From a virus: DNA of 61,319 nt. The stretch is from IMG/VR virus record IMGVR_UViG_3300050821_006531; one strand, given 5' to 3'. The notes under the pieces were generated by a model. That model had not been told where the DNA came from. It saw only the letters and a program-made list of their open reading frames with translations, and searched no databases. How positions within the stretch are numbered: the stretch's first letter is position 1; every line of letters begins with the position of its first letter. Of the stretch, positions 1 to 61,319 are shown piece by piece. Made by a program: the position numbers and the translations under genes.

Positions 1-150
1 CCAGGGCGCGTACCTCCAGGGCGCGTACCTCCGGGGCGCATACCTCCAGGGCGCGTACCTCCAGGGCGCGTACCTCCGGGGCGCATACCTCCAGGGCGCG
101 TACCTCCAGGGCGCGTACCTCCGGGGCGCGGACCTCCAGGGCGCGAAGGG
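1..150. repeat. 15-nt tandem repeat in a 45-nt super-period; this is the coding repeat of the pentapeptide gene
   Basis: Units ccagggcgcgtacct / ccggggcgcatacct are arranged AAB AAB AAC. Nt 1-37 are identical to nt 61283-61319. Confidence 0.95.
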
Positions 151-4538: not shown

Positions 4539-5753
4539 GTGCTCACTCAGAAAAACCACCAGTTGTACCTTGCCCCGGACTCGCTTACGGCCAACGAAGC
4601 CAACGAAAAAGCGAGGCCCACCGAGACCCCGGACCAGCGAAAGGCCAGAGTCAAGACGATGGCTACGAGCATTGCGGATGCAGGCAAGCAACTGGTGCCC
4701 GTGCTGGTCGCCGAGGTGGACAACGGAGACGACACTTACTCGTACGAGTACGTGGACGGTGGGGCGAGAGTGGACGCTGTCAAGCTGATTCGCGAGCACC
4801 CGGACGACTTCGCGGACGGGCACGCCCCCGGCTGGGCCGCCAGCCTCGAAGTCTGGTGTGTGCTCGCGGACCCCGACGTGGACCTGTTCAGACAAGCGAT
4901 TGTCAGTAACTTGCACAGAACACAGAACTCGTTGCTGGACATGGCGAGCATTTGCAGGGAGGTGCGGGAGAGGAACGGGTGGAGCGGGCACGGGGCGCAG
5001 ACGAAGGTCGCCGGGTACCTGGGGCTGCTGCCGAGCCGGGTCAGCGAGTACGAGAAGTTGCTGATGGCCCCGAACTCGCTTGTGAGGCGCATTCAGTCTG
5101 GGGAAGTCCAAACGCTCGACGTGGCGCTCAGGCTCATGAGCCCGAGCATTCCAGAGGACAAGCGCGAGCAAGTGGCCGAGCGTGCAAGTGAGTTGGCTGC
5201 GGAAGAGGTTGAGGACACGGAGTTGGATGATCCAGAAGATATCCTGGCTGAGGACGCAGGTTTGACAATCATTACTCCCAAGACGTCAGACGAACCAGAC
5301 GGGCAGGCGGGAAATAGTCGCGCGGGTAAAACTGCTGCACAAGGGGGCTCTTCGAAGCCTGCCCCGAAGGCGGACAAGCCAAAACCAAAGCCCAAGGTCC
5401 AAGCCAAGCATGTACGTGAGGCCGCACGGGAGGTTGGCGTAAAGGGTGCGGTGACGGCCAGGACCAGAGACGAGATTGTGACTGGACTGGCCAAGCTGGG
5501 GGCGAAGGCCGGTACCAAAGGTCAGGTGCTCGTTTGGTTGGCAAAAGAATGGTGCACGGGACAGAAGTCCGACAAGGAAGCACTCCGTGTGGTGAACGCG
5601 GGACGCGCCGTCTTCTCCCCGGTCAAGCCCGCGCCCAAGAAGGCGTCAAAGCCAGCGAAGACCAAGAAGGCCGCGAAGCCGAAGAGAAAGGCGGCTAAGA
5701 AGTTAAATTCGAGATACGTAAAGCGTCCGCCAAGCAAGACGACGGCAACGTAA
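4539..5753 (+). CDS. ParB-like DNA-binding protein with a Lys/Ala/Pro-rich histone-H1-like tail
   Basis: YEYVDGGARVDAV (GxxR-like box) and IVSNLHRTQNSLLDMASICREV...LLPSRVSEYEKLL..IQSGEVQTLDVALRL (ParB HTH pattern). C-terminus: KPAPKKASKPAKTKKAAKPKRKAAKK. Confidence 0.6.
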   Translation: MLTQKNHQLYLAPDSLTANEANEKARPTETPDQRKARVKTMATSIADAGKQLVPVLVAEVDNGDDTYSYEYVDGGARVDAVKLIREHPDDFADGHAPGWAASLEVWCVLADPDVDLFRQAIVSNLHRTQNSLLDMASICREVRERNGWSGHGAQTKVAGYLGLLPSRVSEYEKLLMAPNSLVRRIQSGEVQTLDVALRLMSPSIPEDKREQVAERASELAAEEVEDTELDDPEDILAEDAGLTIITPKTSDEPDGQAGNSRAGKTAAQGGSSKPAPKADKPKPKPKVQAKHVREAAREVGVKGAVTARTRDEIVTGLAKLGAKAGTKGQVLVWLAKEWCTGQKSDKEALRVVNAGRAVFSPVKPAPKKASKPAKTKKAAKPKRKAAKKLNSRYVKRPPSKTTAT

Positions 5754-16966: not shown

Positions 16967-18358
16967 GTGTCACGGTGCGCGCTTTGTCCGAACACTCACC
17001 GGCAAGTGCTGCCGGACGGCCCAGAGGACGCCCAAGTCGCGGTTGTCGGCGAAGGTCCCGGCTACTGGGAGAACCGTAACGGCATACCCTTCAGTGGCCC
17101 GAGCGGACAAGAACTAAATCTGACGTACTTGCCACTCGCTGGTCTGACGCGGGAGGGAGTGTTCGTCACAAACGTGCTCCAGTGCCGCTGTGAAGCGAAC
17201 GGTGTGGACCGCAAGCCCAGCGACGAACTCGCCCGAGTCTGCGCGAACAACCACCTGTGGGCCGAGCTTGAGCGCGTCAACCCACGAATTGTAGTTGCGT
17301 GCGGAGCTACAGCGTGCGCTCAGTTCGACGACACGATCAACCTGGAGCTGGAGCATGGGTTTCCAAGACCAGCGAGTCACGGGGACTGGCAAGGGATGCT
17401 CGTGCCGATGTACCACCCGGCGGCAGGACTCCACAAGGGTCGATTCATGATCCCGCAGTTGGCCGACTGGGAGAACCTGGGGAAGTGGATGCGTGGGAAG
17501 TGGCGCGTTCCCGATAGTGGTGACGTGCCGTGGGCTCCCCTGGACTACCAGCTTGTCAGCGGCGGCGTGGAACGGAGCAGCCTTGACCAGTTCCTGGCGC
17601 TCGACACAGAAAGCGACGAGGGCAGACCTTACTCAATTCAATGGTCGAGCAAGGCAAATTCCGGAAGGATGCTGCTGGTGGCGGACAGCCACGCGCTCTC
17701 AGACTTCCGGGAGTACGTTCACAGCCGCAACCCTCTGGTCGTAATGCACAATGTGGTTCACGACCTGGAGACTCTCAGGCAGTTGGGCATACACGTTGAA
17801 CGCTTCCGGGACACCATGCAGGAGTTGTACCACTTGGGTAACCTACCCCAAGGACTCAAAGCCGCTGTCTACCGCGTGTTCGGCTACCGCATGACTTCCT
17901 ATGACGAAGTGGTCACACCACACTCGAAGAACGTGCTTGAGTCCTGGCTCGCCGAAGCGCTCGCTGTAGCGACTGAAATGCGGGAGACTACAGCGCACCC
18001 TGTAGGCCCGGACTGCCCGACTTGTGGCAAGAAGCACCGCAAGGACGTGTCCGTGGACAGGCCGCACGAGGCTGAGTCCGTGCTGCACAGGGTTCTGGGC
18101 AAGCTTGACACGGACTACGACCCATGGAAGCAGCCGTGGTTTGACAAAGGTGTTGAAAAGCGCCGGCTGCTGGGCCAGGACTGGCTGCCCGCGCTTGAGG
18201 GCTGCGTGGGGCGGATGCCAAGGCGTTCGATCGTACATGCGCCACTTGACCGGCAGGTTCAGTACGCGGTTGGGGACGCAGACTGGACTCTGCGTCTGGC
18301 GAACTGGCTGGACAAGGAACGAACCCGCATTGTAGCCGAGGAGTGGGCCGTTGCCTAA
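16967..18358 (+). CDS. Family-4 uracil-DNA glycosylase domain fused to a PolA-type 3'-5' exonuclease domain
   Basis: UDG motifs: GEGPGYWENRNGIPFSGPSGQEL, VFVTNVLQCR, MYHPAAGLH. Exonuclease motifs: LALDTESD (Exo I), VMHNVVHDLETL (Exo II), YAVGDADWTLRL (Exo III). Confidence 0.85.
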   Translation: MSRCALCPNTHRQVLPDGPEDAQVAVVGEGPGYWENRNGIPFSGPSGQELNLTYLPLAGLTREGVFVTNVLQCRCEANGVDRKPSDELARVCANNHLWAELERVNPRIVVACGATACAQFDDTINLELEHGFPRPASHGDWQGMLVPMYHPAAGLHKGRFMIPQLADWENLGKWMRGKWRVPDSGDVPWAPLDYQLVSGGVERSSLDQFLALDTESDEGRPYSIQWSSKANSGRMLLVADSHALSDFREYVHSRNPLVVMHNVVHDLETLRQLGIHVERFRDTMQELYHLGNLPQGLKAAVYRVFGYRMTSYDEVVTPHSKNVLESWLAEALAVATEMRETTAHPVGPDCPTCGKKHRKDVSVDRPHEAESVLHRVLGKLDTDYDPWKQPWFDKGVEKRRLLGQDWLPALEGCVGRMPRRSIVHAPLDRQVQYAVGDADWTLRLANWLDKERTRIVAEEWAVA

Positions 18359-18551
18359 ACCCTGGAGCAGTCAACCGCGCGAAGTGCTCGAAGAGTGGCT
18401 CAAAGCCTGTCTGTGGGTTAAGTACTCGAAGCTGACGGACTGGGAGCGGGACTTTTGCACCTCACTTGAGGATCAACTGGAGCGCCGGGGCACGCTCACC
18501 CAGAAGCAGCAAGAGATTCTCGAACGAATTTACGCGGAGCGTACCGACTAA
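18351..18551 (+). CDS. Hypothetical 66-aa protein between the exonuclease and polymerase ORFs
   Basis: A TTG start overlaps the upstream stop. TAATG coupling to the polymerase ORF. Reads LTDWERDFCTSLEDQLERRGTLTQKQQEILERIY. Confidence 0.45.
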   Translation: MPKPWSSQPREVLEEWLKACLWVKYSKLTDWERDFCTSLEDQLERRGTLTQKQQEILERIYAERTD

Positions 18552-21007
18552 TGGCTCTGTACGCAGGCGTCGAACTTCCCGGTCACCCCGATCCTGTCAA
18601 CGTTGCAAAGCTCGACCGGCTGCCACTACGCATGATCGGCGATATGCAAAGGTTTGGCTTTAAGATTGATCCCCCGCACTTCGCCGAACTGTCGTCGCGG
18701 CTGCAAGCAAGACAGCAAGCTCTGCGCAAAGAAATCGCCAACGAAATCCCACCCAAGGCACTGGACCGGTTTGTCGAGGTGCTGGCCGCAACCGACAACG
18801 AGGACGACGACTCAGACTCAGACGCAGTCGTGGACGACTCCGGCCTGTTCAACGTCGAATCGAGCAAGCGCGTGGCTGAACTACTCTACGACACCCTGCG
18901 CCTGGACCTGACCGCTGGCGTCAAAGTCAAAAAGACCAAGGGCGGGGACCGGCTCTCGACCGGCAAGAAAACCCTGGAGCAACTCAAGCGCGCGCACCCG
19001 GTCGTGCCTCTGATTCTTGAGTACCGTGAGTGTTCAAAGCTTGACGGAACGTATGCGCGAGCGATGCCACGAAGGGCCGTGCTGCACCCCAAGGGACCGG
19101 ACTGCCCCAGGTGCGGGCGCAAGCACTGGGAAGACGAGTGGCGGGTGCACACACAACTATTGACGACTCGCACAGCCACGGGTCGCACCGCGTCGAAGAA
19201 TCCGAACCTCGGCAACATACCCGGTAGGTCCGCACTGGGCCGCGAAATTCGCGCTGGTTTTATTCCGAGTGTTGGACACGTAATCTGCCAGCGCGATTGG
19301 GCACAAATAGAATTGCGATTAATGGCTGACAGGTCCGGTGACTCAACAATGATTGAAGTCTACCAAGCAGACGGAGATATTCACGTACGTACTGCAATGG
19401 GTACGTTTGAAATCTCCGATCCAGAAAAGGTAGATAAATTATTACATAGAGCGCCATCGAAAAATACAAATTTCGCGGTCTGCATAGCCGGTGGTCAAAA
19501 AGTCCTTACTGACCGTGGATTGATTCCCATAGAACGAGTAGGATATCATGATCGTGTATGGGATGGACAAGAATTTGTTTTTCATCAAGGTGTGATCTGC
19601 CAGGGCTTCAAGGAGGTCATCGAGTATGACGGACTCACAGCAACCCCGGACCACAAAGTCTGGCTCAAGGATGGTACCGTTTCGACGCTCGAAGGGGCGC
19701 GTTCAGCCAGACGACAACTTGCTCATACCGAGGTTGGCGGCATTGCCATTAGGTTCCTTGAGACTGAACTTGGACGGAATCCACCGGCGAGGCCCACGTC
19801 GAGAAAAGTGCATCTTCGCGACATGCGTGGAATGTGGACGTACGCGAGAAGTGACGTTGAGCAATTTGTTGCTGAGAAGAACAACGAACTGTACTTGCAA
19901 GAAAACCTATCCAGATCCACGCTCCACAATGCTTTTGAAGAGATGGCAGGCCATCCTTCAGCGATGCAACAACCCAAACAACGAGTCGTACCGAAACTAT
20001 GGAGGACGTGGCATCGAGTGCAAGTTTGGCTCCGCGAAAGAGTTTCTCGACTACGTTTTAAAGAGACTCCCACATCCTTCCTACAAAAAAGTGGACATTG
20101 GCAGGAAGAACAACGACGGCCATTACGAGAAGGGCAATCTACGGCTGGAGACCCGGAGTCAGAACTTACGCAACAGGCGCTCAAATCGGTTCGTGGAGTA
20201 TCGCGGGCGTTTGGTTACGCACGCGGACTTGTACGACCTGCTGAGACGCGACTATCCAGACTTCAAGCTCAGCCTAATACGCACACGCAATTTGGCTGCT
20301 CTTGGGGTTCCGTGGCAGGAAATACTCCAAAGAACCCCACGGAAACATTGGAAAAGGAAGGCAAAAAGTACGCCTGGGTCTTCGATATTCTAAATGCAGG
20401 ACCACGTCGCCGTTTCACCGTATCGGGCCGGCTGGTTAGTAACTGCTACCTCATCACCGGAGCTGGACTGTTGGACCTGATGGCCTCGACGTTCGCGACT
20501 GCTGGCCAACCAATGCCAGACTACATGACTGAGCGCTGGTGCAACGACTTCATTGAGAAGTGGTTTGGGTTGTACCCCGGTGTGAAGAAGTATTTGTCGA
20601 GCGAGGAAGAGAAAGCTCGCAGATACGGGATTGTATGGACAGCGACGGGCAGAGTCCGGCGCATCCCAGAAGCGCGAAGCTGCCACCCTTGGATACAAGA
20701 CGCCGGAGTGCGCCAGGGTTGTAATCACGGTATACAGGGCTATTCGGCGGATCTCATGAAGTTGGCAATGGGAGAATTGGACGAGAGATTAGCGAGCTTG
20801 CGCGAGTACGGAGTACAGTCATTTTGTTTGATGTCAATTTATGATGAATTACTGGTGGAAGCTCCCGAGGATGATGCTTTGACAGTCTCGGCCTGCATGG
20901 AGACTGTTATGGATAATGTTCTATTGGACCGCCAAACAGGCAGTCTTCTCTGCAAGGTTCCAATAAAGTCAGACGGGAGTATTCTTACCAGATGGAACAA
21001 GAACTAG
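18551..21007 (+). CDS. Family-A DNA polymerase, polymerase domain, containing an intein
   Basis: Motif A DWAQIELRLMA. Motif B RAPSKNTNFAV | intein | CYLITGAGL. Motif C MSIYDELLVEAP. Also NHGIQGYSADLMK. Confidence 0.85.
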   Translation: MALYAGVELPGHPDPVNVAKLDRLPLRMIGDMQRFGFKIDPPHFAELSSRLQARQQALRKEIANEIPPKALDRFVEVLAATDNEDDDSDSDAVVDDSGLFNVESSKRVAELLYDTLRLDLTAGVKVKKTKGGDRLSTGKKTLEQLKRAHPVVPLILEYRECSKLDGTYARAMPRRAVLHPKGPDCPRCGRKHWEDEWRVHTQLLTTRTATGRTASKNPNLGNIPGRSALGREIRAGFIPSVGHVICQRDWAQIELRLMADRSGDSTMIEVYQADGDIHVRTAMGTFEISDPEKVDKLLHRAPSKNTNFAVCIAGGQKVLTDRGLIPIERVGYHDRVWDGQEFVFHQGVICQGFKEVIEYDGLTATPDHKVWLKDGTVSTLEGARSARRQLAHTEVGGIAIRFLETELGRNPPARPTSRKVHLRDMRGMWTYARSDVEQFVAEKNNELYLQENLSRSTLHNAFEEMAGHPSAMQQPKQRVVPKLWRTWHRVQVWLRERVSRLRFKETPTSFLQKSGHWQEEQRRPLREGQSTAGDPESELTQQALKSVRGVSRAFGYARGLVRPAETRLSRLQAQPNTHTQFGCSWGSVAGNTPKNPTETLEKEGKKYAWVFDILNAGPRRRFTVSGRLVSNCYLITGAGLLDLMASTFATAGQPMPDYMTERWCNDFIEKWFGLYPGVKKYLSSEEEKARRYGIVWTATGRVRRIPEARSCHPWIQDAGVRQGCNHGIQGYSADLMKLAMGELDERLASLREYGVQSFCLMSIYDELLVEAPEDDALTVSACMETVMDNVLLDRQTGSLLCKVPIKSDGSILTRWNKN
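19481..20443 (+). mobile_element. Intein (321 codons) inserted in PolA motif B
   Basis: Cys1 in CIAGGQKVLTDRGLIPIERV; block B LTATPDHKVWL; blocks F/G VFDILNAGPRRRFTVSGRLVSN followed by the +1 Cys (tgc at 20444). Confidence 0.8.
19626..20393 (+). CDS. +1-frame ORF nested in the intein: homing-endonuclease-associated DNA-binding-like protein
   Basis: 255 codons are open in the +1 frame. Reads CVECGRTREVTLSNLLLRRTTNCTC...RWQAILQRCNNPNNESYRNYGGRGIECKF...DIGRKNNDGHYEKGNLRLETRSQNLRNRR. The true start is uncertain. Confidence 0.6.
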   Translation: MTDSQQPRTTKSGSRMVPFRRSKGRVQPDDNLLIPRLAALPLGSLRLNLDGIHRRGPRREKCIFATCVECGRTREVTLSNLLLRRTTNCTCKKTYPDPRSTMLLKRWQAILQRCNNPNNESYRNYGGRGIECKFGSAKEFLDYVLKRLPHPSYKKVDIGRKNNDGHYEKGNLRLETRSQNLRNRRSNRFVEYRGRLVTHADLYDLLRRDYPDFKLSLIRTRNLAALGVPWQEILQRTPRKHWKRKAKSTPGSSIF

Positions 21008-21537
21008 AACGCTGGCTACCTATACAAGATTGGCCAGACTATGAGGTCTCCAATTTGGGGCGGATCAAAAGCCACCACAACCGGAGCTACAAGAATCACA
21101 TTTTGCGCCCGGTGTTCACGACCAGAAACGGTTATATGAAAGTCACACTTTGTTATAACAGGATTCGCCGTGACGTTCTTGTGCATCGAATAGTGGCGAC
21201 GGCTTTCCTTCGGCCGCCTAAAGCCGGTGAAGAAGCCAATCACAAAAACCTTGATAAGGTGGATAACCGAGCAATCAATCTGGAATGGGTGACTCGCGCG
21301 GAGAATGCTTAACACGCCATGGCGTGGGGTCGTAAGTTCATCCCTTCCTTGCGCTGTCCAGAATGTATGGCTCGTGGAGAATCCAGCGGTCAAAGTAAGT
21401 TGAAGAATCGCCAAGTCCTAAAAATTAGAGAACTGGTGAAAACCGGCATTTCCATGAGCGAAGTGGCACGTAGGTTTTCAGTCAGCCCTCACACCATAAC
21501 TCGCATACGAGACAGAAAAAGTTGGAGACATATTTGA
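20992..21537 (+). pseudogene. HNH (NUMOD4 + HNH_3-type) homing endonuclease with an in-frame TAA
   Basis: WLPIQDWPDYEVSNLGRIKS...VHRIVATAFL...ANHKNLDKVDNRAINLEWVTRAENA, then TAA (21310-21312), then HAMAWGRK...SKLKNRQVLKIRELVKTGISMSEVARRFSVSPHTITRIRDRKSWRHI in the same frame. Confidence 0.75.
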
Positions 21538-48019: not shown

Positions 48020-49978
48020 TCAGGAGGTCTTCAGAGTCACGTCCCCGGCCCCATCGTTTGAGAGCTTGGGAGGCGCTTCGTCAGTGGCTTTGCGGCCTTG
48101 AGCGTTCGCAATCATGCCAATGCCAAGCTGGGCCTGGAGCTGGAGCCGACTGAGTTCATCGTTGGGCACTTGCAGACTTGGCGGCGCGAAGTTCATCTTG
48201 CCCAAATTCTCCATCAGAGTGAACACCGACAGGTAACCCATCTTGCTCAGCATCAGATCTTCCATGCGTTCTTGCATGGCGGCACTGTTGAGCAGGCTGC
48301 CGGGCTTGAACGTAAACGTGAACGAGTCGAACATTTGCCGGGCACGCATATACTGCGGGCGCGGATTGTCGGCGGCGAGCGCGTCTTCGGTCGCGCCGAT
48401 GTCGCCGGGGGTGCCGTCCGGCACGTCGTCAGGAATGAAGGTTCCGGGGTCGTAGTCGAAGTCCTCGGGAGTGACGGCTTGTGGGCCAAACTTAGCAACT
48501 CGCTTGGAGATCGTGTCGAACTCGGCAATGCAGTAGAGGTATTGCTCGGCGAAGTCTTTCATGAATCCTTCAAGGATTCGGGACCGGAGGCGGTTCCCCG
48601 GCGTCATCATTTTCATGAGAGTGTCGAGAGTGTCGTCGGAGGGGAGCTGGCCGAGTTGGCTGACCTGGGTCATGTCGGCGGTGCCGGACAGCTTCTGAAT
48701 CATTGTCTCGATCCAGTTGACGTGCTGCCAGAGGGACTGCTGAAGAGGCGGTTCGACTTGGATTTGGATGCCCTTGCCGGCCGCCATGTTGGTACGGATC
48801 TGGTAGCCAGGGGTGCGGGAGTTGAACTTGTTGAGTTCGGCGCGCGAGACGTTGCGGTCAGCCACGACGCCAGGCTGGGCCAGCTTCGCCGCGTGGTCAT
48901 CAATCACACGCAACAAGCTGTTCAAGCTTTCGTTCAGGGGCATCACGTCCCACAGCGGGGCCTTGCCGAGCCAGGACATCGGCCACGGGTTGAGAGTCAG
49001 CTTCAGCAGTGGGAACTGTGCGTGCCAGTACGGACTCGTGTCGTCGTAGAGCAGGCAGTTGCCACCCCAGACAATCAGTCGTTTGAACGGGTAGAGCGGC
49101 GCGCCGGGCGGGACTTGGTACGACCAGGGAGCGGTGGGCTCACCGTCCTTCCACGGACCCATGTACTGGGTTTTGTTCGACTCGTTCGTGCGTGTGTCGT
49201 TCAAGTACATCGTGTTGACGAACACGGTGGGAGTCGCGGGGATTGGTTGGTCGTCGCCGCGCGACTTGCTGAGCGGCCCGGAGTGCTTGTTCTTGGACGT
49301 GCCGCCGAAGGTGCGGGTGAACCAGCCAAACATGCCAGCACTGCCAATGTCTGGCTTTACGTCCTTGCCGTATTCGGCCTGAACCCAATGCGGGGTGCGC
49401 GGCTGACGCAGAATTACCCCGAGCGCGTCTTGGATCGAGTGGTAGGAAATGGGTTCGATCGGGAAGACATTGCGCGGGTCGAGTGCTTCGAGCATCATGT
49501 CTTCGAGGCGACGGTTGTAGTAGAGGTGGCCCCAACCGGTGCCTGCGATTGTGTAGTAGCGCACAAGGTCAGCGAGGCGCAGGTCGATGTTGCGGGAGGT
49601 GTACCAGTCTTCCGCTTCCTTGTTGCAGATTCTGGCCTGGGACTCGTACTTCGGGTTGCGGGTCGCGTAGTTCCAGAAGATGCGGGTGTCGGTCAGGTCA
49701 GCGGTTAAGTCCTCGGCTGTTTTGGCGCAGAGGTTGGCACGGGTGCGGGACAGGGGTTTCGGGGTCGGGACGTACGAAGCCCCGGACTCGCGTTCGTACG
49801 AGAAGATGGAGTTGAGAGCGTTGTCGATCTTGTCAAAGCCCACGGCGGCCTCGACGAACCTGCGGCCTTCCTGCAAGCGCGACTCACACCACTCTAACGT
49901 TTGGTAGTCGCGGGTGCCAGGCTTGACCTCGTCAGCTTCGACGCGGGCGTCGGGGAGTCCGTAGAAGTCGTTGGGCAT
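48020..49978 (-). CDS. Putative portal protein
   Basis: 652 aa, the first large gene after the terminase block. Confidence 0.65.
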   Translation of the reverse strand: MPNDFYGLPDARVEADEVKPGTRDYQTLEWCESRLQEGRRFVEAAVGFDKIDNALNSIFSYERESGASYVPTPKPLSRTRANLCAKTAEDLTADLTDTRIFWNYATRNPKYESQARICNKEAEDWYTSRNIDLRLADLVRYYTIAGTGWGHLYYNRRLEDMMLEALDPRNVFPIEPISYHSIQDALGVILRQPRTPHWVQAEYGKDVKPDIGSAGMFGWFTRTFGGTSKNKHSGPLSKSRGDDQPIPATPTVFVNTMYLNDTRTNESNKTQYMGPWKDGEPTAPWSYQVPPGAPLYPFKRLIVWGGNCLLYDDTSPYWHAQFPLLKLTLNPWPMSWLGKAPLWDVMPLNESLNSLLRVIDDHAAKLAQPGVVADRNVSRAELNKFNSRTPGYQIRTNMAAGKGIQIQVEPPLQQSLWQHVNWIETMIQKLSGTADMTQVSQLGQLPSDDTLDTLMKMMTPGNRLRSRILEGFMKDFAEQYLYCIAEFDTISKRVAKFGPQAVTPEDFDYDPGTFIPDDVPDGTPGDIGATEDALAADNPRPQYMRARQMFDSFTFTFKPGSLLNSAAMQERMEDLMLSKMGYLSVFTLMENLGKMNFAPPSLQVPNDELSRLQLQAQLGIGMIANAQGRKATDEAPPKLSNDGAGDVTLKTS

Positions 49979-50426: not shown

Positions 50427-50654
50427 CTAGAACACGGCGGTTTCAAGCGCCTTACGAAAGATGTTTTCCCAACAGTACAGAGCCAGGTCCTGCTTGTACG
50501 CACGCTTTTGCAAGCGTGTCAGCACGACTGGATCAATTCTAACGTAAGCGATTGCGCTGCCGTCCGGCTGGTCGAGGTCGATCACGCAGTTGGTGGGCCG
50601 GGCGGTGGCGGGTTTGGGCTTGGTGTGGATTGGGCGGTCTTGAACGGCTGGCAT
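50427..50654 (-). CDS. Hypothetical protein
   Basis: A 75-aa ORF. Confidence 0.45.
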   Translation of the reverse strand: MPAVQDRPIHTKPKPATARPTNCVIDLDQPDGSAIAYVRIDPVVLTRLQKRAYKQDLALYCWENIFRKALETAVF

Positions 50655-50715
50655 GTAGGCTAGTTTACCTCAAGAGGCGGATCATCTCGCAATCCGCCTC
50701 TTTCGTCTCAGGTTT

Positions 50716-50967
50716 CTAGGTCTTCGTCTCAGTTTTGGGAACTTCTACCGGAGTAAAGTCCACATACATCTCAGCCCCCAGCGGGAACTGCTCCCACGCT
50801 TTGTGATTAAGTGTACCAATCTCAATCGTGCCTGACGGCGTCCAGCGGAAGAACTGCTTGTTCTCGTCGCTGCCGTCCACCACCACTTGAAGCTTGATCC
50901 GGCGAAGCTCCTCGCCCCGATCCAAAAACGTCTCGTAACTGCTTACTCGGAATTTGCAACGTACCAT
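50716..50967 (-). CDS. Hypothetical phage protein
   Basis: MVRCKFRVSS...ENKQFFRWTPSGTIEIGT...YVDFTPV is a pattern common in small phage proteins. Confidence 0.55.
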   Translation of the reverse strand: MVRCKFRVSSYETFLDRGEELRRIKLQVVVDGSDENKQFFRWTPSGTIEIGTLNHKAWEQFPLGAEMYVDFTPVEVPKTETKT

Positions 50968-51017
50968 TTTAGTCTCCTTGAAAGATCGGACATTGGCTCA
51001 TTCCATGCCAAAGCCGT

Positions 51018-51917
51018 CTACCAGGAGTCTACCGCATCCGCCCAGGCGTCACGCACGCTACGGTACTCGCCAAGGACTGGCGCGTACTGCTGGTGGTCGA
51101 GGATTGCACGTTCGGTCACTGGCTCGTTGGTACGCTCGGGGTCATACGTCCACTTGTGAGCTGCCCAAAATAACATGTTGGCTGTTTGCAGCAGGTCGTC
51201 ATGCATCCCGTAAGCTGCCCGAGCCCGCATCTTCTCCACGTCCAGCACAGCGTTTGCGTACTCGGCCAGCAGCCAAGGCGAGTAAATCAGCGCTCGGTCT
51301 TCCATGAGATGCCGGCGCGAGCGGTACCAAAGAATCTTCTGCGTTTCGCGGCCCGAGTACCAGCCAATGTGCTGGGTTTGCTGAGCGACGTTGTCCGCAA
51401 TCTTCTCCCACTGCCACAGGTTCCCGTAGCCCAGGCGCAGGAGTTCTTGTAGGGTTAACATGCCGGGGCCTGGGTAGGACTCAAAAATAAACTCACACTG
51501 GTCGTCTTCGTCGCCGGCGTAGATACGGCCAAGGACGTTGGCTACGCGGGCCGCTTCGACTGCGTCGATTGGAGCGAAGTACTCGGCACACTGAACGTCC
51601 TGGTAGTAGAACTCCTGCTGGTTCGTCTGCTCGCTCAGCTTGGGGCTTCCGTCTTTGTTGTAACGGAGGACTTTGAAAGCGTCTACTTCGAAGATTTCAA
51701 TGGCGGCGTTGTCGGTCTTGTGGTCGCCTTCGGTGCGGCTGGACCGAGTCCAATTTGTAATTCCGACTGTCGGATCACACGACATTACATACTTGGCGTG
51801 GGGCCGGGGCTCGCGCCAGACGTGAACGAAACCGCGCGGGTCTTGGAGCACGCTCTCGTCGGACTCGATGGTGCGCAAGAGATTTGACCCTGCAACATGA
51901 TAACTGTCTAGAATCAT
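51018..51917 (-). CDS. terL: Large terminase, nuclease (RNase H-like) domain as a separate ORF
   Basis: YVMSCDPTVG, DNAAIEIFEV and AYGMHDDLLQTANM (acidic catalytic residues). ATGA coupling to the HNH gene. Confidence 0.7.
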   Translation of the reverse strand: MILDSYHVAGSNLLRTIESDESVLQDPRGFVHVWREPRPHAKYVMSCDPTVGITNWTRSSRTEGDHKTDNAAIEIFEVDAFKVLRYNKDGSPKLSEQTNQQEFYYQDVQCAEYFAPIDAVEAARVANVLGRIYAGDEDDQCEFIFESYPGPGMLTLQELLRLGYGNLWQWEKIADNVAQQTQHIGWYSGRETQKILWYRSRRHLMEDRALIYSPWLLAEYANAVLDVEKMRARAAYGMHDDLLQTANMLFWAAHKWTYDPERTNEPVTERAILDHQQYAPVLGEYRSVRDAWADAVDSW

Positions 51918-52387
51918 CCGCGCCTTCCATATTGGGCTTCTCGATACTGAACTGCATAGACAGTTCTAATTGCTACACCAAAATCCCGTGCTATTTCTGG
52001 AGCGGTGTCCCCTCGTGATCGACGCTGTCTTATCTCGGCAAGATCGGAGTCACTAAGACGTTTGTTGTATGAATGAAGTTCCTTGATCTTTCTTATACAC
52101 TTTGCAGAACCGCAGGTCTTAGCCCGCCCCCGCTTGGATTTTGGCGGGGCAAATTCTATACCACATATAAAACAGTTTTTTGTTGCTGGATGCCTGGTTC
52201 TGTGAAGCCGCTGGTGCTCCGATGCTGACAAGACCTCCAGATTCTCTAACCGGTTGTCTCTTTTGTTGTGATTCTTGTGATGAACGTGTTCCTTCGTATC
52301 TAATTTCCGTCCCAGATGTTTTTCCATGATAAGACGGTGCTCGCCCACTGGCTTGCCATTAACCCGAATGTTTTTGTAACTGTTCAT
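51914..52387 (-). CDS. HNH endonuclease
   Basis: EHRLIMEKHLGRKLDTKEHVHHKNHNKRDNRLENLEVLSASEHQRLH. Visibly more AT-rich than its flanks. Confidence 0.85.
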   Translation of the reverse strand: MNSYKNIRVNGKPVGEHRLIMEKHLGRKLDTKEHVHHKNHNKRDNRLENLEVLSASEHQRLHRTRHPATKNCFICGIEFAPPKSKRGRAKTCGSAKCIRKIKELHSYNKRLSDSDLAEIRQRRSRGDTAPEIARDFGVAIRTVYAVQYREAQYGRRG

Positions 52388-52405
52388 GTGGTACTCGCCT
52401 TGGAC

Positions 52406-53662
52406 CTAGGCTGCTGTTAGTATCTCAGGCTCAAACACCGCGTCGGGGAACTTGGTTCGTTGCTCCATGCGTTCGATGAGCTCGACCGGCAAAGCGCCTG
52501 CGCTTGGAGACTGGAACGACTGCTCGGGCGTGGCCGGGTAATTGGTCAGAAACGTGGCCAGCTCGCCATTTTGCGCGTGCAGGGCGCGGGCCGACTCCCA
52601 CCAGAACAATTGTTCGCGCGTCAGGTGGTACGTGCGACCGTCGAGGAACTCAGGACTCGTGCGCTCAATTAGAACGGCGTGACGGAGAGTGTGTTCTTCA
52701 GGGACCCAGTTCGGAGAAGGGTTCGCCCTGTACTTAAGCTTGTTGTAGTACCAAGGTATAAACGCGTAAATCCATGACTCGTAGCCCCGGCGCTTGTGCC
52801 GGGCGGCCTCGGTGACTTCGTGCCAGTAGTTGCCCTTGCCGTCGGCGGTGGACTCTTGGACGTGCAAGGTTGTGATGGCTTTGGGCATTGCGGGGACGAA
52901 TGAGTAGCGGATTCGACCGGGGTACTGCCAGAGCGCGACTTCGGTCAGGTGCGACACGTCAACCTGCGACCCGACGCCGATGCCAGCGGTTTGGTTCTCA
53001 GCCTGGTAGGAAATGCGGGAACTGATTGGCGGTGCAAACCCAATCTCGGAGTCCTTCACGTCAGGGTAGATTTTCGGACTCATCCAAAACGGAAGATTGT
53101 CCAGAATCAGGTGGTCGCGTTTGAAGAGTTCGCCGACACGGTCGGCATCGAGCGAGGCGGCGAAGGCGCGAGTGCCGGGCCAGAACAGCATGCGGTGTTG
53201 CGTGACACCGCGCACCAGCGCGGTCGCCATGACTTGGCGGCACTTGTGCACATACACGAGTATGCCTTCTGTGAACTTGTGCTTGGCCAGTTCTTCGTGA
53301 CACTGCTCCTCGCGGCGGCCGAACAGGTCCACGTAGCGGTGCTGCGACTCAGCCATGACCGGGGGACCAATGCCTGAGTTGTCGCACACGCCAGGGTCCA
53401 GCTCCACGTTGGCGTAGCGTTCGTACCAGTACTTGAAGTCGTTTTTGCACAAGAGGCGCTCCGAGTCCACGAAGGCTTGTTCGCGGGGGTCGAAAGGCCG
53501 GGAGGTGTTACCGTCTGGAATGAGGTGGCCCCGGCGGTCGTAGCGCAGGGCTTCGAGTTCGTGGGCTATTTCAATGGAGCGGGAGCGGTCCTCGCGCTTG
53601 TACTTGAGACCGGCCTTGCGGGCGGCGAAGAGGCGTTTGTCTACGATGATGTCGCTGTACAC
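52406..53662 (-). CDS. terL: Large terminase, ATPase domain as a separate ORF
   Basis: Deviant P-loop VYVHKCRQVMATAL (KxxxxGx[ST]-like, as in lambda gpA and P22-type TerL). Walker B-like QVDVSHLTEVALW. Confidence 0.7.
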   Translation of the reverse strand: MYSDIIVDKRLFAARKAGLKYKREDRSRSIEIAHELEALRYDRRGHLIPDGNTSRPFDPREQAFVDSERLLCKNDFKYWYERYANVELDPGVCDNSGIGPPVMAESQHRYVDLFGRREEQCHEELAKHKFTEGILVYVHKCRQVMATALVRGVTQHRMLFWPGTRAFAASLDADRVGELFKRDHLILDNLPFWMSPKIYPDVKDSEIGFAPPISSRISYQAENQTAGIGVGSQVDVSHLTEVALWQYPGRIRYSFVPAMPKAITTLHVQESTADGKGNYWHEVTEAARHKRRGYESWIYAFIPWYYNKLKYRANPSPNWVPEEHTLRHAVLIERTSPEFLDGRTYHLTREQLFWWESARALHAQNGELATFLTNYPATPEQSFQSPSAGALPVELIERMEQRTKFPDAVFEPEILTAA

Positions 53663-53946
53663 AGGGCAGTCTGGATTGCTTTCATGTCTCTAAAGACGGT
53701 TGCTTTGGACCACTGATTCTCGCGAGCGATCTGTCCCACTGACAAGCCACGGTTCATTCCAAGGTAGATCCGTCGAGCCCGGTCCAGCAAAGAGGTGTTC
53801 TTGCGCACTCCCCCCGTCGCGAGCAGCCACAGGCACATTCTGCACCTTCCCCGATTGCCTCCACACTCCCAGAAGCCGTGTTCGTGGCGGCAGTTTGACC
53901 AGTCCATCATTGCGACTTTCGGCAGATGCTCTTCCAGGTCGTCCAC
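53641..53946 (-). CDS. Small HTH protein (candidate small terminase or regulator)
   Basis: GLSVGQIARENQWSKATVFRDMKAI. Immediately upstream of TerL. Confidence 0.45.
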   Translation of the reverse strand: MDDLEEHLPKVAMMDWSNCRHEHGFWECGGNRGRCRMCLWLLATGGVRKNTSLLDRARRIYLGMNRGLSVGQIARENQWSKATVFRDMKAIQTALCTATSS

Positions 53947-53955
53947 ACCACAAGA

Positions 53956-54252
53956 CTACTTCTCGGTCCCGGACGTAATCAAGCAGACTTGGCGCTTGGG
54001 CTCAGGCGCACGGTGGCCCAGGCGTTTCCAGGAACGATGCTGACGCGGGAGGACCGGCTGCGGGATTTCAGTGCACATCAGCATCAGGACTTGTTTGCTT
54101 ACCGTGCTGACCGGGATTCGTGTTGGTCCTGGGCAGTCCACTGGCACGGGGCCGGTTTCGGTGAACTTCACACACGTGTTAAGCAATGAAGGACCGGTCG
54201 CCGGCGCGGCGGGCTGAAGCAACAAGAACATTCCTACTATGGTGTTTAACAC
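53956..54252 (-). CDS. Hypothetical protein
   Basis: A 98-aa ORF with weak coding character. Confidence 0.3.
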   Translation of the reverse strand: MLNTIVGMFLLLQPAAPATGPSLLNTCVKFTETGPVPVDCPGPTRIPVSTVSKQVLMLMCTEIPQPVLPRQHRSWKRLGHRAPEPKRQVCLITSGTEK

Positions 54253-54257
54253 TACAG

Positions 54258-54491
54258 TTACTCTTCCTCTTGTTCGTCAGGATCGCCGGGGCTCCACAAG
54301 CGCTTCCAGAGCGGGCGGTCCTCGGTCACTCCCTGGTAGCTGACTTCGGTGTTGCGAACGTTTGGCGACTCGGTCACAAGGTAGACCGGTGGAGTGCGGG
54401 ACGCAAGGTCGGCTTCGTAGAGTTGGCGCAGTTTGGTGAGTTCTTGAGCGATTGTACGGAAGGGTCGGAGAACTTGGAGCCATTTACGCAC
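54258..54491 (-). CDS. Hypothetical acidic-tailed protein
   Basis: The start is trimmed to the GTG at 54491 (VRKWLQVLRPF...). Confidence 0.4.
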   Translation of the reverse strand: MRKWLQVLRPFRTIAQELTKLRQLYEADLASRTPPVYLVTESPNVRNTEVSYQGVTEDRPLWKRLWSPGDPDEQEEE

Positions 54492-55272
54492 CTTCAGGCT
54501 CCGCTGGCTCGTCCGGCGCTTCGATAGCTTGTGTTGTGTCCAAGTCAACCGCAAAGTTCACCTTGTGCAGCTTGTCGAACACGCTCGGAGCGTCCATGCC
54601 GCTAAAGTTCATGTTCACACTGACCCCGCCGCCGGACTTCTTGCCCACTACCTGTGCGGCTTCGAGCACCTTACTGACGGCTGCCGGGTCGGGCGCTTTC
54701 TGTGTTCGACCAGCACCCTCACAAATCGGGCAGCGACGCACGTGCCGGACTTCGCCCTTTTTGTTCTTGGACTCACGAATGCCCAGGTCTTTGCGGTTAG
54801 CAGCCATTGTCACAAGATCGTCGGGGACAGGGATTTCGCCCAGGCCGTCACAGCGTTCGCAGTTGGTCCACTGGCCGACCGCTTGCTGGCCCTGCCGGCG
54901 CATGACTTCGAAACCATCCTCTTGAGCTTGCACCAGCGTGCGCGCGGTCTGGGCTTCACTCCAGAACTGCTTGAACTGTTTGAGCGTGATGTTGTTGATC
55001 TTTGCGATTGCGGCCAGGCACATCTTGTCAGACGAGGGTTTGCCCAGGTCTTCGAGCACCCGGTTGAACCTGTGGTCGCCCGAGAGCGCGAGCGCGTGTC
55101 TGGCTGCTTCGCCGCGCGGTGTGGACTGGCGAAGTTCGAGCGAGTCCAGGTAAGCGTTGTACTCAAAGTCGAGCTTTGCGTAGGTTGACGTGGGGACAAG
55201 GCCACGTTCGGTGGTGGTGTGGGGCTTGCCGGATTGGCGCTCGATCATGAGCTTGGGACGTTTGACGGACAT
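54484..55272 (-). CDS. Protein with a DnaJ-type CxxCxGxG zinc-finger pair; first gene of the late operon
   Basis: The start is trimmed to MSVKRPKL. Contains CERCDGLG and CPICEGAG. Confidence 0.6.
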   Translation of the reverse strand: MSVKRPKLMIERQSGKPHTTTERGLVPTSTYAKLDFEYNAYLDSLELRQSTPRGEAARHALALSGDHRFNRVLEDLGKPSSDKMCLAAIAKINNITLKQFKQFWSEAQTARTLVQAQEDGFEVMRRQGQQAVGQWTNCERCDGLGEIPVPDDLVTMAANRKDLGIRESKNKKGEVRHVRRCPICEGAGRTQKAPDPAAVSKVLEAAQVVGKKSGGGVSVNMNFSGMDAPSVFDKLHKVNFAVDLDTTQAIEAPDEPAEPEGA

Positions 55273-55286
55273 TGCAGTACACAGGA

Positions 55287-55300
55287 AGTTTAACCTATAA
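55287..55300 (-). promoter_or_regulatory. TAGGTTAAACT box ahead of the late operon
   Basis: The minus strand reads ttataggttaaact, with TTGTGC 17 nt upstream. It lies 14 nt before the ATG at 55272. Confidence 0.45.
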
Positions 55301-55405
55301 TTGCGGGTATGCACAAGGGTTACTTGAGGCTGTTGGTGCAGGTGGTTGTGGCCGCGCTGGCACTCGCGGCGGTTTGCTATGTGTCTTGTAAGGTACGATA
55401 GCAGC

Positions 55406-56329
55406 ATGAACTTTCGAAGACTTGTGTTGTTGTTCGCGGCACTGCTGTGGCTGGCTCCGGCTGTGCCAGCTCAGGAAATTCGCGGGGTGGAGTTGTGGTT
55501 GCCGGGGTTGCCGCCTGGTGGGGCCGGGGGAGCTTGCCTCGTGCCAACCATTGCGTATTTCAACCTCGCGACCGGTGTGCCGTACGTTTGTCCGTCGGGT
55601 ACGCTGGTGTGGACAGCGCTCGCAACGAGTGGCTCCGCAATTACTGGGGGGACTTGCACCAACCAAGCCGTAACAGCAATATCGACAGCGGGCGTGCCTA
55701 CCTGCACCACGCTCACAAGCTCCTACGTAGACACTTCGATTGCAAAGACCGGGACGGACATCAACACCAGCAACCAGGTTACAGCAACGCACTTGGCTTC
55801 CGCGCTGCCGGTCAACCAGGGAGGCACGGCGGCCACGACGGCAATCGGCGCGGTGACCAACCTCGCGTCGGGGTACATACTGTGCAGACAGACGACCGCT
55901 GTCTCGACCGGAGCTGACACTACCGTGGACTTGCTCTTTGGGTGTACCGTTCCAATCGACACACTCACGGCCAACTCCACTCTTAAAGCCGAGGGGCATT
56001 TCCTGGTATCGGCTGGGGTTACCTGCACCGCTTTTATTCACTGGTCCAACAGCGCCTCGACAAACACTGGAACCGGAATGGTGATTACGACTGCTCTAAC
56101 TCCGACCCGAGCTGTCGAGGCATTTGCGACACTGTCCAACCGGAACTCGGTAAGTTCTCAAAGCTACGGTGCGTTTTGGAACGGAACGGCGAGCACGATG
56201 AACCAAAACCAGGGTACGACTTCCCTCAATACTCACACAACCACATTGTTTGTTAACTTCGAAATGCAAAACGGAGCGAACACAGACACATGCACACTCA
56301 ACGACGCAATTGTTACGATTTGGCCCTGA
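55406..56329 (+). CDS. Secreted fibre-like protein
   Basis: Signal peptide MNFRRLVLLFAALLWLAPAVPAQE. LPVNQGGTAATTAIGAVTNL resembles the GGTG-type motif of tail fibres. Confidence 0.55.
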   Translation: MNFRRLVLLFAALLWLAPAVPAQEIRGVELWLPGLPPGGAGGACLVPTIAYFNLATGVPYVCPSGTLVWTALATSGSAITGGTCTNQAVTAISTAGVPTCTTLTSSYVDTSIAKTGTDINTSNQVTATHLASALPVNQGGTAATTAIGAVTNLASGYILCRQTTAVSTGADTTVDLLFGCTVPIDTLTANSTLKAEGHFLVSAGVTCTAFIHWSNSASTNTGTGMVITTALTPTRAVEAFATLSNRNSVSSQSYGAFWNGTASTMNQNQGTTSLNTHTTTLFVNFEMQNGANTDTCTLNDAIVTIWP

Positions 56330-60951: not shown

Positions 60952-61319
60952 GTTTTGAAATTCTACATCGCCACACAAAAGCCGTACTCTACACGAGCGC
61001 GACGGCAACGGAAGTCTTGAGTGCTTTAACTGAGGCTGTAAGGGCGGGCGCGAACCTCCAGGGCGCGGACCTCCAGGACGCGTACTTCCGGGGCGCGTAC
61101 CTCCGGGGCGCGGACCTCCGGGACGCGTACCTCCGGGGCGCGAACCTCCGGGGCGCGGACCTCCGGAGCGCATGCCTCCAGGACGCATGCCTCCAGGGCG
61201 CGGACCTCCGGGGCGCATACCTCCAGGGCGCATACCTCCAGGACGCATACCTCCAGGGCGCGTACCTCCGGGGCGCATACCTCCAGGGCGCGTACCTCCA
61301 GGGCGCGTACCTCCGGGGC
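60948..61319 (+). CDS. Pentapeptide-repeat protein, N-terminal part; runs off the window and continues at nt 2
   Basis: MSFEILHRHTKAVLYTSATATEVLSALTEAVRAGANLQGADLQDAYFRGAYLRGADL... No stop before the window end. Confidence 0.85.
   Translation, partial: MSFEILHRHTKAVLYTSATATEVLSALTEAVRAGANLQGADLQDAYFRGAYLRGADLRDAYLRGANLRGADLRSACLQDACLQGADLRGAYLQGAYLQDAYLQGAYLRGAYLQGAYLQGAYLRG
61050..61319. repeat. 15-nt coding tandem repeat, more diverged 5' and near-identical 3'
   Basis: About 18 units of the form cc(a/g)gg(g/a)cgc(g/a)(t/g/a)acct, merging into the repeat at 1-150. Confidence 0.9.

Follow-up and report, generated by a model that had tools for sequence, protein, structure and literature searches.

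A putative homing endonuclease gene at the boundary of a two-gene terminase large subunit in an uncultured phage genome

The canonical large terminase subunit (TerL), as in T4 gp17, HK97, P74-26, Sf6 and the herpesvirus pUL15/UL89, carries an ASCE ATPase domain followed by an RNase H-like nuclease domain on one polypeptide, the two being connected via a linker. Models of the packaging motor rest on such single-chain TerLs (T4 gp17, P74-26, HK97), and in these models the domains move or communicate via a covalent hinge. A different arrangement is described here for a stretch of viral DNA of 61,319 nucleotides (nt), the IMG/VR record IMGVR_UViG_3300050821_006531 (hereafter the window, meaning the whole stretch), where the two domains are not carried on one polypeptide and are predicted to be encoded by separate genes, terL-N for the ATPase half and terL-C for the nuclease half, with a gene for an HNH endonuclease lying between them. 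The order of the domains, the equivalent positions of the catalytic residues and the presence of a portal gene nearby are as in the canonical TerLs. Unlike them, the window and about 44% of the complete relatives (among the best 150 of 1904) have two linker-free polypeptides, and the halves in the window are too divergent for Pfam or for a sequence profile search of the PDB. It is highly likely that the window is the near-complete genome, of about 61 kb, of an uncultured soil phage belonging to a clade with a native two-gene TerL, and that a foreign HNH gene was inserted later between the two genes.

Several components of this arrangement are already known, namely free-standing homing endonuclease genes (HEGs) beside terminase genes, the fragmentation of terL by introns or inteins and the splitting of an essential gene by an HNH gene (PMC10448857, PMC12880540, PMC7156551, PMC3045599); HEGs are in fact reported to cluster at terminase genes (PMC10448857). 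The closest parallel is the nrdA-a/mobE/nrdA-b locus of phage Aeh1, where an essential enzyme is likewise encoded as two open reading frames (ORFs) around a free-standing HNH gene; there the HNH insertion made the split, function is regained through protein-protein assembly and not through splicing, and the new tails are essential for that assembly (PMC3045599). Unlike in Aeh1, the split seen in the window is present without the HNH gene in nearly all relatives and its termini are native. The free-standing HNH endonucleases of phages, such as the T4 Mob class and ICP1 HNH-3, combine an HNH_3 domain with a zinc module and a DNA-binding tail, are intergenic beside an essential conserved gene, occur sporadically, have a foreign composition and may be represented by different HEGs at one site across genomes (PMC2988022, PMC10448857). 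The HNH gene of the window resembles them in these respects, with a putative DNA-binding tail, and differs in being only 48% identical to its nearest homologue; cleavage of a target site and homing are predicted for it.

Genes for TerL that are interrupted by introns or inteins, as in the Jug phages (PMC12880540), ICP1 (PMC10448857) and cyanophage Mic1 (PMC7156551), also appear as terL fragments in annotation and show that terL is targeted by mobile elements, and relatives of the window do carry inteins at the Walker A and Walker B motifs; the junction in the window differs from these in having neither a ribozyme nor a Hint domain, and in having real stop and start codons at the domain boundary, which remain unjoined. 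The split-intein 'fractured genes' share the order of N-fragment, endonuclease gene and C-fragment (PMC2677866), whereas the window has no split-intein halves and its ends align residue-for-residue with intact homologues up to the linker. An HNH protein encoded in the packaging gene cluster is known in HK97 gp74, and HNH genes of that type, so far as they are discussed in PMC10448857, are conserved among related phages and lie upstream of the terminase genes; the one in the window belongs to the HNH_3 homing type, is known from a single genome and has its place between the two halves of TerL. The literature searched, the coverage of which is incomplete so that it can offer absence of evidence only, holds intron-split, intein-split or bypassed terL genes and no natural two-gene TerL, while two candidate papers (PMC11526630, PMC12210895) proved irrelevant. 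A widespread two-chain TerL thus seems to be undescribed in the literature searched.

Two TerL genes in the window and the boundary between them

Three co-oriented ORFs, all on the minus strand, fill positions 51018..53662 of the window. The features of the locus, with lengths in nt or amino acids (aa), are as follows.

52406..53662, minus strand: terL-N, the ATPase half; 418 aa, GTG start, TAG stop
52388..52405, minus strand: spacer from the stop of terL-N to the start of the HNH gene; 18 nt, GTCCAAGGCGAGTACCAC, read directly
51914..52387, minus strand: HNH_3 endonuclease gene; 157 aa, with its own ATG and TGA stop
51018..51917, minus strand: terL-C, the nuclease half; 299 aa, ATG start, RNase H-like

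A weak purine-rich Shine-Dalgarno (SD)-like motif, AAGGCGAG, lies within the spacer, the TGA stop of the HNH gene and the ATG of terL-C share an ATGA overlap, and GGAAGG is found 6 nt upstream of that ATG. The terL-N stop is separated from the terL-C start by a gap of 488 nt that holds a complete ORF. These coordinates, the 18-nt spacer and the ATGA overlap, as given in a preliminary description of this DNA, were confirmed from the ORF list and the sequence. A 6-nt AAGGCG that precedes the HNH start as well as the terL-C start was judged to be compatible with chance. Independent assemblies of two other sequencing runs show the order of terL-N, HNH and terL-C with 100% identity, and the exact HNH protein is present only on 4 contigs from 3 samples, all of the same phage and 100% identical across 6.5 kb. 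An assembly artefact is ruled out by the agreement of the independent assemblies, and no population variation is present among the other assemblies of this phage, which are likewise 100% identical. A search of all stop-to-stop ORFs with profile hidden Markov models of both halves revealed no second TerL-like ORF in the window, and hence no intact terL elsewhere in it, the presence of which would have spoken against the preliminary description.

Identification of the two halves by sequence search was of limited use. Pfam returned no family for either half, PHROGs gave a weak terL match for the N half (E 0.002) and none for the nuclease half, and a profile of 32 N halves found nothing at E<=1 among PDB sequences. 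Since the sequence profiles failed on the PDB, structure prediction was employed, with AF2 models of both halves built from the homologue alignments and compared by Foldseek. The model of terL-N (pLDDT 84.7) has as its top matches the ATPase domain of T4 gp17 (3cpe, 2o0j, 2o0h; E 6e-9 to 3e-8), followed by the TerLs of HK97, T7, P74-26, D6E and Sf6. Within it, HKCRQVMAT (aa 139-147) is placed at a strand-to-helix junction after the strand 134-139, and VSHLTE (aa 236-241), the Walker B/catalytic Glu motif, at the end of the strand 236-239; the residues K140, R142, Q143, T147, D235 and E241 are invariant in 32 terL-N homologues. We take HKCRQVMAT to be a deviant Walker A motif with the Lys at its start, and the Walker B motif to end in T-E instead of D-E. 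By predicted fold and motifs terL-N is identified as the TerL ATPase domain, an ASCE P-loop packaging ATPase, and ATP-driven translocation of DNA on the portal is its predicted function. By tblastn, the N half is also 24.5% identical to the intact 723-aa TerL of the Tunturiibacter phages Tunturi_1 and Tunturi_2.

The model of terL-C (pLDDT 82.1) matches the gp17 nuclease of RB49 (3c6a, E 6e-6) and T4 gp17 (3ezk, 1.4e-5), as well as the nuclease domains of UL89 of human cytomegalovirus (HCMV) and UL15 of herpes simplex virus (HSV). Among the catalytic acids, D48 (in SCDPTVG) ends the first strand and D240/D241 (in GMHDDLLQ) start a helix; D48, D107, E112, D118, D240 and D241 are invariant in 35 terL-C homologues. 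The modelled fold and the acidic residues identify terL-C as an RNase H-like TerL nuclease domain. Thus, the claim that a single TerL is divided between the two ORFs, one for the ATPase and one for the nuclease, is borne out by models that match the domains of gp17, both halves matching TerL folds and not unrelated families, and the motifs quoted in its favour (KCRQVMAT, SHLTE, SCDPTVG and GMHDDLLQ) occupy the expected structural positions with their key residues invariant. In the models, the C-terminal helix and tail of terL-N (aa 385-418) are of low confidence (pLDDT 38-67), and terL-C has an N-terminal beta-hairpin (aa 4-15) and, towards its other end, a tail (aa 259-284) that is disordered in the model.

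The position of the break was examined by alignment to 7 intact homologues of 732-747 aa that are 51-57% identical and span both halves end to end. terL-N, the C-terminus of which reads ...FEPEILTAA, is 51-57% identical to residues 1-~415 of these proteins, its end ...VFEPEILTAA aligning where they read ...VYEIEVERT, and the start of the C half, MILDSYHVAGS, aligns where they read FPxALYVGGS. A variable polar linker of 12-20 aa is missing in comparison with the intact homologues and nothing else, which places the break in the interdomain linker, as had been proposed. The proposal that TerL is made as two polypeptides is likewise supported by the stop codon, the 488-nt gap and the separate start between the domains. 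The same termini are found in relatives without the HNH gene, one of which ends its N half in ...AVYEPEIVVAA (P0009) and another of which begins its C half with MIPDSYSVSGS (P0122). The termini in the window are, by these alignments, the native termini of the family, with no tails derived from an insertion.

The two-gene state among relatives

Stand-alone homologues of both halves are numerous, with more than 100 clusters for the ATPase half (~415-436 aa) and more than 110 for the nuclease half (~297-320 aa). Both halves and the HNH gene were mapped in 95 related loci, of which 61 are non-redundant and carry both halves. The halves are separate genes in 58 of these 61: in 42 loci they are adjacent with no insert, in 16 they are split with some other insert at the junction, and only the remaining 3 have a single fused ORF. 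A homologue of the HNH gene of the window occurs in none of the 95 related loci. P0122, which is closest to the window in the nuclease half (81% identity), lacks the HNH gene and has 8 nt between its TerL halves, and four further relatives of 64-73% identity (L001, L002, L006, L007) are also split and HNH-free. Judged from this distribution, the split is shown to predate the HNH gene, and the already split state of the HNH-less relatives, together with the native termini, implies that the HNH gene dropped cleanly into a pre-existing gene boundary. The preliminary description had it that insertion of the HNH gene split terL, and this is contradicted by the 58 split relatives, 42 of them without an insert and the closest one included, and by the native termini. 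A survey of related phages for an uninterrupted terL, as it had suggested, does find intact homologues, but only the 3 fused loci among the 61, and the close relatives are split.

The 42 clean junctions are mostly tight. A four-nt ATGA or GTGA overlap is present in 23 and a one-nt overlap (TGATG, TAATG or TAGTG) in 8, stop and start abut in 2, a spacer of 4-25 nt is found in 8 and the one remaining junction is of another kind. An SD-like GGAG, GAGG or AGGA occurs 4-18 nt before the start of the nuclease gene in 25 of the 42, as against a background of 15% in the same coding DNA, and is encoded within a conserved C-terminal peptide of terL-N, Y-E/D-V-E-V/I-A-A.

The inserts at the junction in other relatives that could be assigned to a family are as follows.

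L046:5424-6350: C5 DNA methyltransferase (4e-41)
L062:511-1245: DpdA (1.4e-73)
L018:5272-5775: possible DPPY/N6 methyltransferase (weak match)
L039, L064, L066: HNH_3 endonucleases, 21-23% identical to the HNH protein of the window

The remaining junction inserts are small zinc-finger or unknown ORFs. The genes for DpdA, the C5 methylase and the N6-type enzyme begin on or beside the stop of the ATPase gene, and the inserts are lower in GC than their own flanks. The boundary between the TerL genes is, on this comparative evidence, a landing pad for mobile or accessory genes. In the distant relative L003, an inserted ORF of 81 aa (L003:6061-6306) gives a weak match to the DnaJ-type CXXCXGXG zinc finger (E 4e-5).

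The wider family was examined by a profile search of 1.84 billion protein cluster representatives, which yielded 1904 relatives at E<=1e-3, and the best 150 of these were re-scored with profiles of both halves. They comprise 58 fused proteins, 6 fused with a large insert in the ATPase domain, 37 stand-alone ATPase halves, 14 stand-alone ATPase halves with a large insert, 28 fragments and 7 others, so that stand-alone forms account for 51 of the 115 complete ATPase domains (~44%) as against 64 fused, and the two forms are interleaved throughout the ranking. The inserts in the ATPase domains measure 150-350 aa, lie at Walker A (profile position ~148) and Walker B (~235) and are inteins with Intein_splicing or LAGLIDADG_3 matches; they occur in fused as well as stand-alone chains, and the intein-bearing relatives are P0365, P0388, P0405, P0414, P0427, P0448, P0453 and P0395.

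A tree of the concatenated halves was constructed by neighbour-joining with 100 bootstraps. Fused P0003 has split L030 as its sister (91% bootstrap). Of the clades that mix both forms, one supported at 100% contains 7 fused and 10 split members and another, supported at 99%, contains 1 fused and 12 split. The outgroups L059 and Tunturi_1 are both fused. The clade of the window, which is weakly supported, is entirely split with no fused member. Since fused and split forms interleave in the tree, the fused or split state is read as having switched several times within the family. The linker of P0003 is ~12 residues longer than that of its split sister, from which it follows that its fusion is no trivial read-through of an ATGA junction.

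The HNH gene and the alternative explanations

The HNH ORF matches Pfam HNH_3 (7e-14; profile positions 4-46 of 46) and about 20 PHROG HNH families. Its motif, HHKNHNKRDNRLENLEV...EH, is intact and conserved in comparison with homologues, with which it also shares a CxxC...C zinc module and an HTH-like (helix-turn-helix) tail. The gene has a GC content of 0.466 and a GC3 of 0.437, whereas the TerL halves have 0.60 and 0.58 for GC and 0.76 and 0.71 for GC3, and just 0.4% of the 474-nt windows of the genome are as low in GC; the contrast in AT-richness with its flanks that had been noted earlier was thus confirmed. The next homologue is 48% identical, and the one homologue with a readable context adjoins a DNA methylase and not terL. 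The gene is therefore an HNH ORF of its own outside any intron or intein, sporadic among relatives and of atypical composition. Its distribution, composition and family make it most likely a selfish free-standing homing endonuclease gene, for which homing is predicted, and not a cofactor like HK97 gp74. Between the two roles that the preliminary description had offered for it, selfish or co-opted, the selfish one is favoured, co-option being unlikely given that no relative has the gene and its nearest homologue stands beside a methylase.

That the HNH protein was nonetheless co-opted as an accessory nuclease of the terminase, like HK97 gp74 in cos cleavage, must be weighed against these data. 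The gene lies within the packaging operon, where it shares the orientation of both TerL genes and is tightly coupled to them, it retains an intact catalytic motif, and cooperation of an HK97-type HNH protein with terminase is known, as far as PMC10448857 discusses it. It is found, however, in 1 of ~62 related genomes, so that the relatives package without it; its composition is foreign, the combination of HNH_3, zinc module and putative HTH is the architecture of Mob-like homing endonucleases (PMC10448857), the nearest homologue is not near a terminase, and other genomes have methylases or DpdA at the same junction, all of which render co-option improbable. It is still less probable that an intact terL was cut in the lineage of the window by the HNH insertion, giving genes in pieces as in Aeh1 nrdA/mobE. 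The gene does lie exactly between the TerL halves, intact homologues exist and there is a precedent for fragmentation of essential phage genes by free-standing HNH genes (PMC3045599), but all close relatives are split without any HNH gene, the clade of the window lacks a fused member, the termini are those of stand-alone halves and neither side of the HNH gene shows the linker of the fused forms. A related view places the event deeper, with the ancestral fission or fissions in the TerL family caused by insertion of an endonuclease into the linker and its subsequent loss, the present HNH gene being a re-occupation of the site. It draws on the junction as a hot spot (16 of 61 loci with inserts, three unrelated HNH_3 genes included), on the heavy parasitisation of the family by inteins at Walker A and Walker B, on a linker in fused forms longer than simple re-fusion of split forms would yield and on the several state changes in the tree. 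Yet none of the 42 clean junctions retains an endonuclease remnant, the neighbour-joining tree gives no direction to the fused/split change, and a stop and a start in a disordered linker could arise equally well by point mutation; such an origin is regarded as rather unlikely.

The restoration of a single-chain TerL by RNA splicing, protein trans-splicing, frameshifting, read-through or ribosomal bypassing has to be considered because group I introns and inteins commonly interrupt terL genes (PMC12880540, PMC10448857, PMC7156551), a bypass was put forward for the terminase of phiHau3 (PMC10732093), and the C frame is at -1 with respect to the N frame in most relatives. A search of Rfam over positions 50500-54200 on both strands at E<=10 found no intron and returned a chance sRNA match alone (E 0.24), and the flanks of the HNH gene outside ORFs amount to 18 nt and 0 nt, in agreement with the earlier argument that there is no room for an intron. 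The earlier exclusion of an intein stands equally, as Pfam shows HNH_3 and HTH alone, neither Hint nor intein sequence is present, and alignment of the ends with intact homologues as far as the linker leaves no room for split-intein halves. The 488-nt gap in the window contains a complete ORF, slippery heptamers are found in none of the 42 relatives with clean junctions, and the junction frames are mixed (-1, 0, +1) with TGA, TAA and TAG stops, so that no single conserved recoding mechanism can apply; rejoining of the chains is accordingly considered extremely improbable. Reassignment of a stop codon was rejected, as TGA, TAA and TAG are all used at the junctions and the majority of C halves lie in a different frame. 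Hardly any more credible is the view that the phage is defective, or a prophage remnant, and that its terL is in decay. In its favour are the purely metagenomic origin of the data and the failure of Pfam to recognise either half, but the halves are full-length with invariant catalytic residues and more than 100 clusters each, the structure models are confident, the contig represents a whole genome of ~61 kb with portal, polymerase and other genes, and a scan of 185,579 bacterial species genomes (genome_contigs) found no relative, no prophage copy and no host assignment.

Some observations weigh against a native two-gene TerL with a later HNH insertion. No near-isogenic HNH-less genome was found in IMG/VR by a search for the exact pattern of the terL-C 5' end, and the C-terminal HTH_7 and HTH_38 matches of the HNH protein (E 0.002) are below the Pfam gathering scores. 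The tree is a neighbour-joining tree only and does not fix the number and direction of fissions and fusions, a fused TerL is found in the nearest isolates, which are Tunturiibacter phages, and the nuclease half has no tblastn match in 50,697 phage records, the arrangement being thus represented in no cultured phage.

The reading of a native two-gene TerL with a later HNH insert suggests the following course of events. In most relatives, the two TerL genes would be translationally coupled, by termination-reinitiation at the ATGA/TGATG overlaps with an SD-like GGAGG in the last codons of terL-N. A free-standing HNH_3 gene of low GC would then have landed cleanly between the stop codon of terL-N and the start codon of terL-C, its ORF borrowing a stop codon from the ATG-A of terL-C and the GGAAGG in its 3' end possibly serving as the SD sequence for the terL-C start. 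A search for promoter or terminator consensus within the HNH cassette on the minus strand gave nothing above shuffled expectation, from which we infer co-transcription of the HNH gene with the packaging genes, and all three genes may be expressed from the packaging operon. The two TerL chains, translated separately, would come together at the portal through non-covalent contacts and there package and cut the DNA, with terL-N aa 385-418 and the terL-C beta-hairpin, aa 4-15, as candidate contact elements in the models. The HNH gene would probably spread by cutting HNH-less junction alleles in co-infections.

Genomic surroundings and significance

Two further genes lie in the packaging region.

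53641..53946, minus strand: HTH protein gene; 101 aa, its 3' end overlapping the terL-N start by 22 nt
48020..49978, minus strand: portal gene; 652 aa, with matches to PHROG 156 portal (2e-10) and, under the gathering score, to Pfam SU10_portal (2.6e-5)

The 101-aa protein has weak HTH matches alone and an equivalent gene order is found in L097; from its position it may be a small terminase or DNA-recognition subunit. The portal gene, co-oriented with terL-C, follows it after ~1 kb of downstream sequence that contains three small ORFs. An ORF of 307 aa upstream of the packaging genes (54484..55407, minus strand) gives a weak match to the DnaJ-type CXXCXGXG zinc finger (E 0.0024).

Other putative mobile elements are located around the DNA polymerase. 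A second HNH-like gene (20992..21312, plus strand; 106 aa, NUMOD4 7.7e-15, HNH_3 5.7e-9) overlaps the gene for the family-A DNA polymerase at its 3' end, in a low-GC island (~20650-21150), and is followed by an HTH_7/HTH_23 ORF of 72 aa (21319..21537, plus strand); the nuclease and DNA-binding parts of a single endonuclease may have come to lie on these two ORFs. In the polymerase ORF (18551..21007, plus strand; 818 aa), Pfam DNA_pol_A matches in two stretches ~350 aa apart. The insert between them (~19480..20555), for which Pfam returned no family, starts with C-IAGGQKVLTDRGLIPIERV, ends in ...GRLVSN|C and coincides with a low-GC island; by eye its ends look like intein termini, making it a candidate intein. 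Upstream of the polymerase-domain ORF, an ORF of 463 aa (16967..18358, plus strand) matches the uracil-DNA-glycosylase superfamily (6e-23) and the DNA pol A 3'-5' exonuclease (5e-11), and the polymerase and exonuclease functions therefore are also on separate ORFs here.

The window starts (1..60) and ends (61260..61319) within 15-nt tandem repeats with CCAGGGCGCGTACCT and CCGGGGCGCATACCT units, and a second copy of its first 30 nt occurs at offset 45. The contig probably represents a complete or circularly permuted genome of ~61.3 kb, broken in the repeat array at assembly. The nearest isolates hint at Acidobacteriota as the host phylum of the clade of the window. One of them, Tunturi_1 (L096, PP887698.1), is a 63-kb phage of Acidobacteriota with an annotated HNH gene (5009..5605) directly after its portal gene.

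The HNH gene itself is probably an ordinary selfish element, the significance of which lies in showing that a gene boundary within an essential enzyme attracts mobile genes. As regards the TerL genes, it is likely that a large and deep clade of uncultured soil phages, possibly infecting Acidobacteriota, packages its DNA with a two-chain TerL, the ATPase motor and the headful/cos nuclease forming distinct subunits, that has switched repeatedly with the fused state, that the hinge is dispensable and that the boundary between the genes serves as a landing pad. TerL is a standard marker in virome studies; both halves escape Pfam, and the nuclease half also escapes PHROGs and the isolates searched, so that such phages would be scored as terL-less or fragmented. 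If the fused and split states were switched several times, the covalent hinge would be dispensable for both translocation and cutting. With about four in ten lineages free of the hinge, fused and split sisters at 50-60% identity constitute natural matched pairs, which could show the role of the tether in force generation, headful nuclease switching and portal docking.

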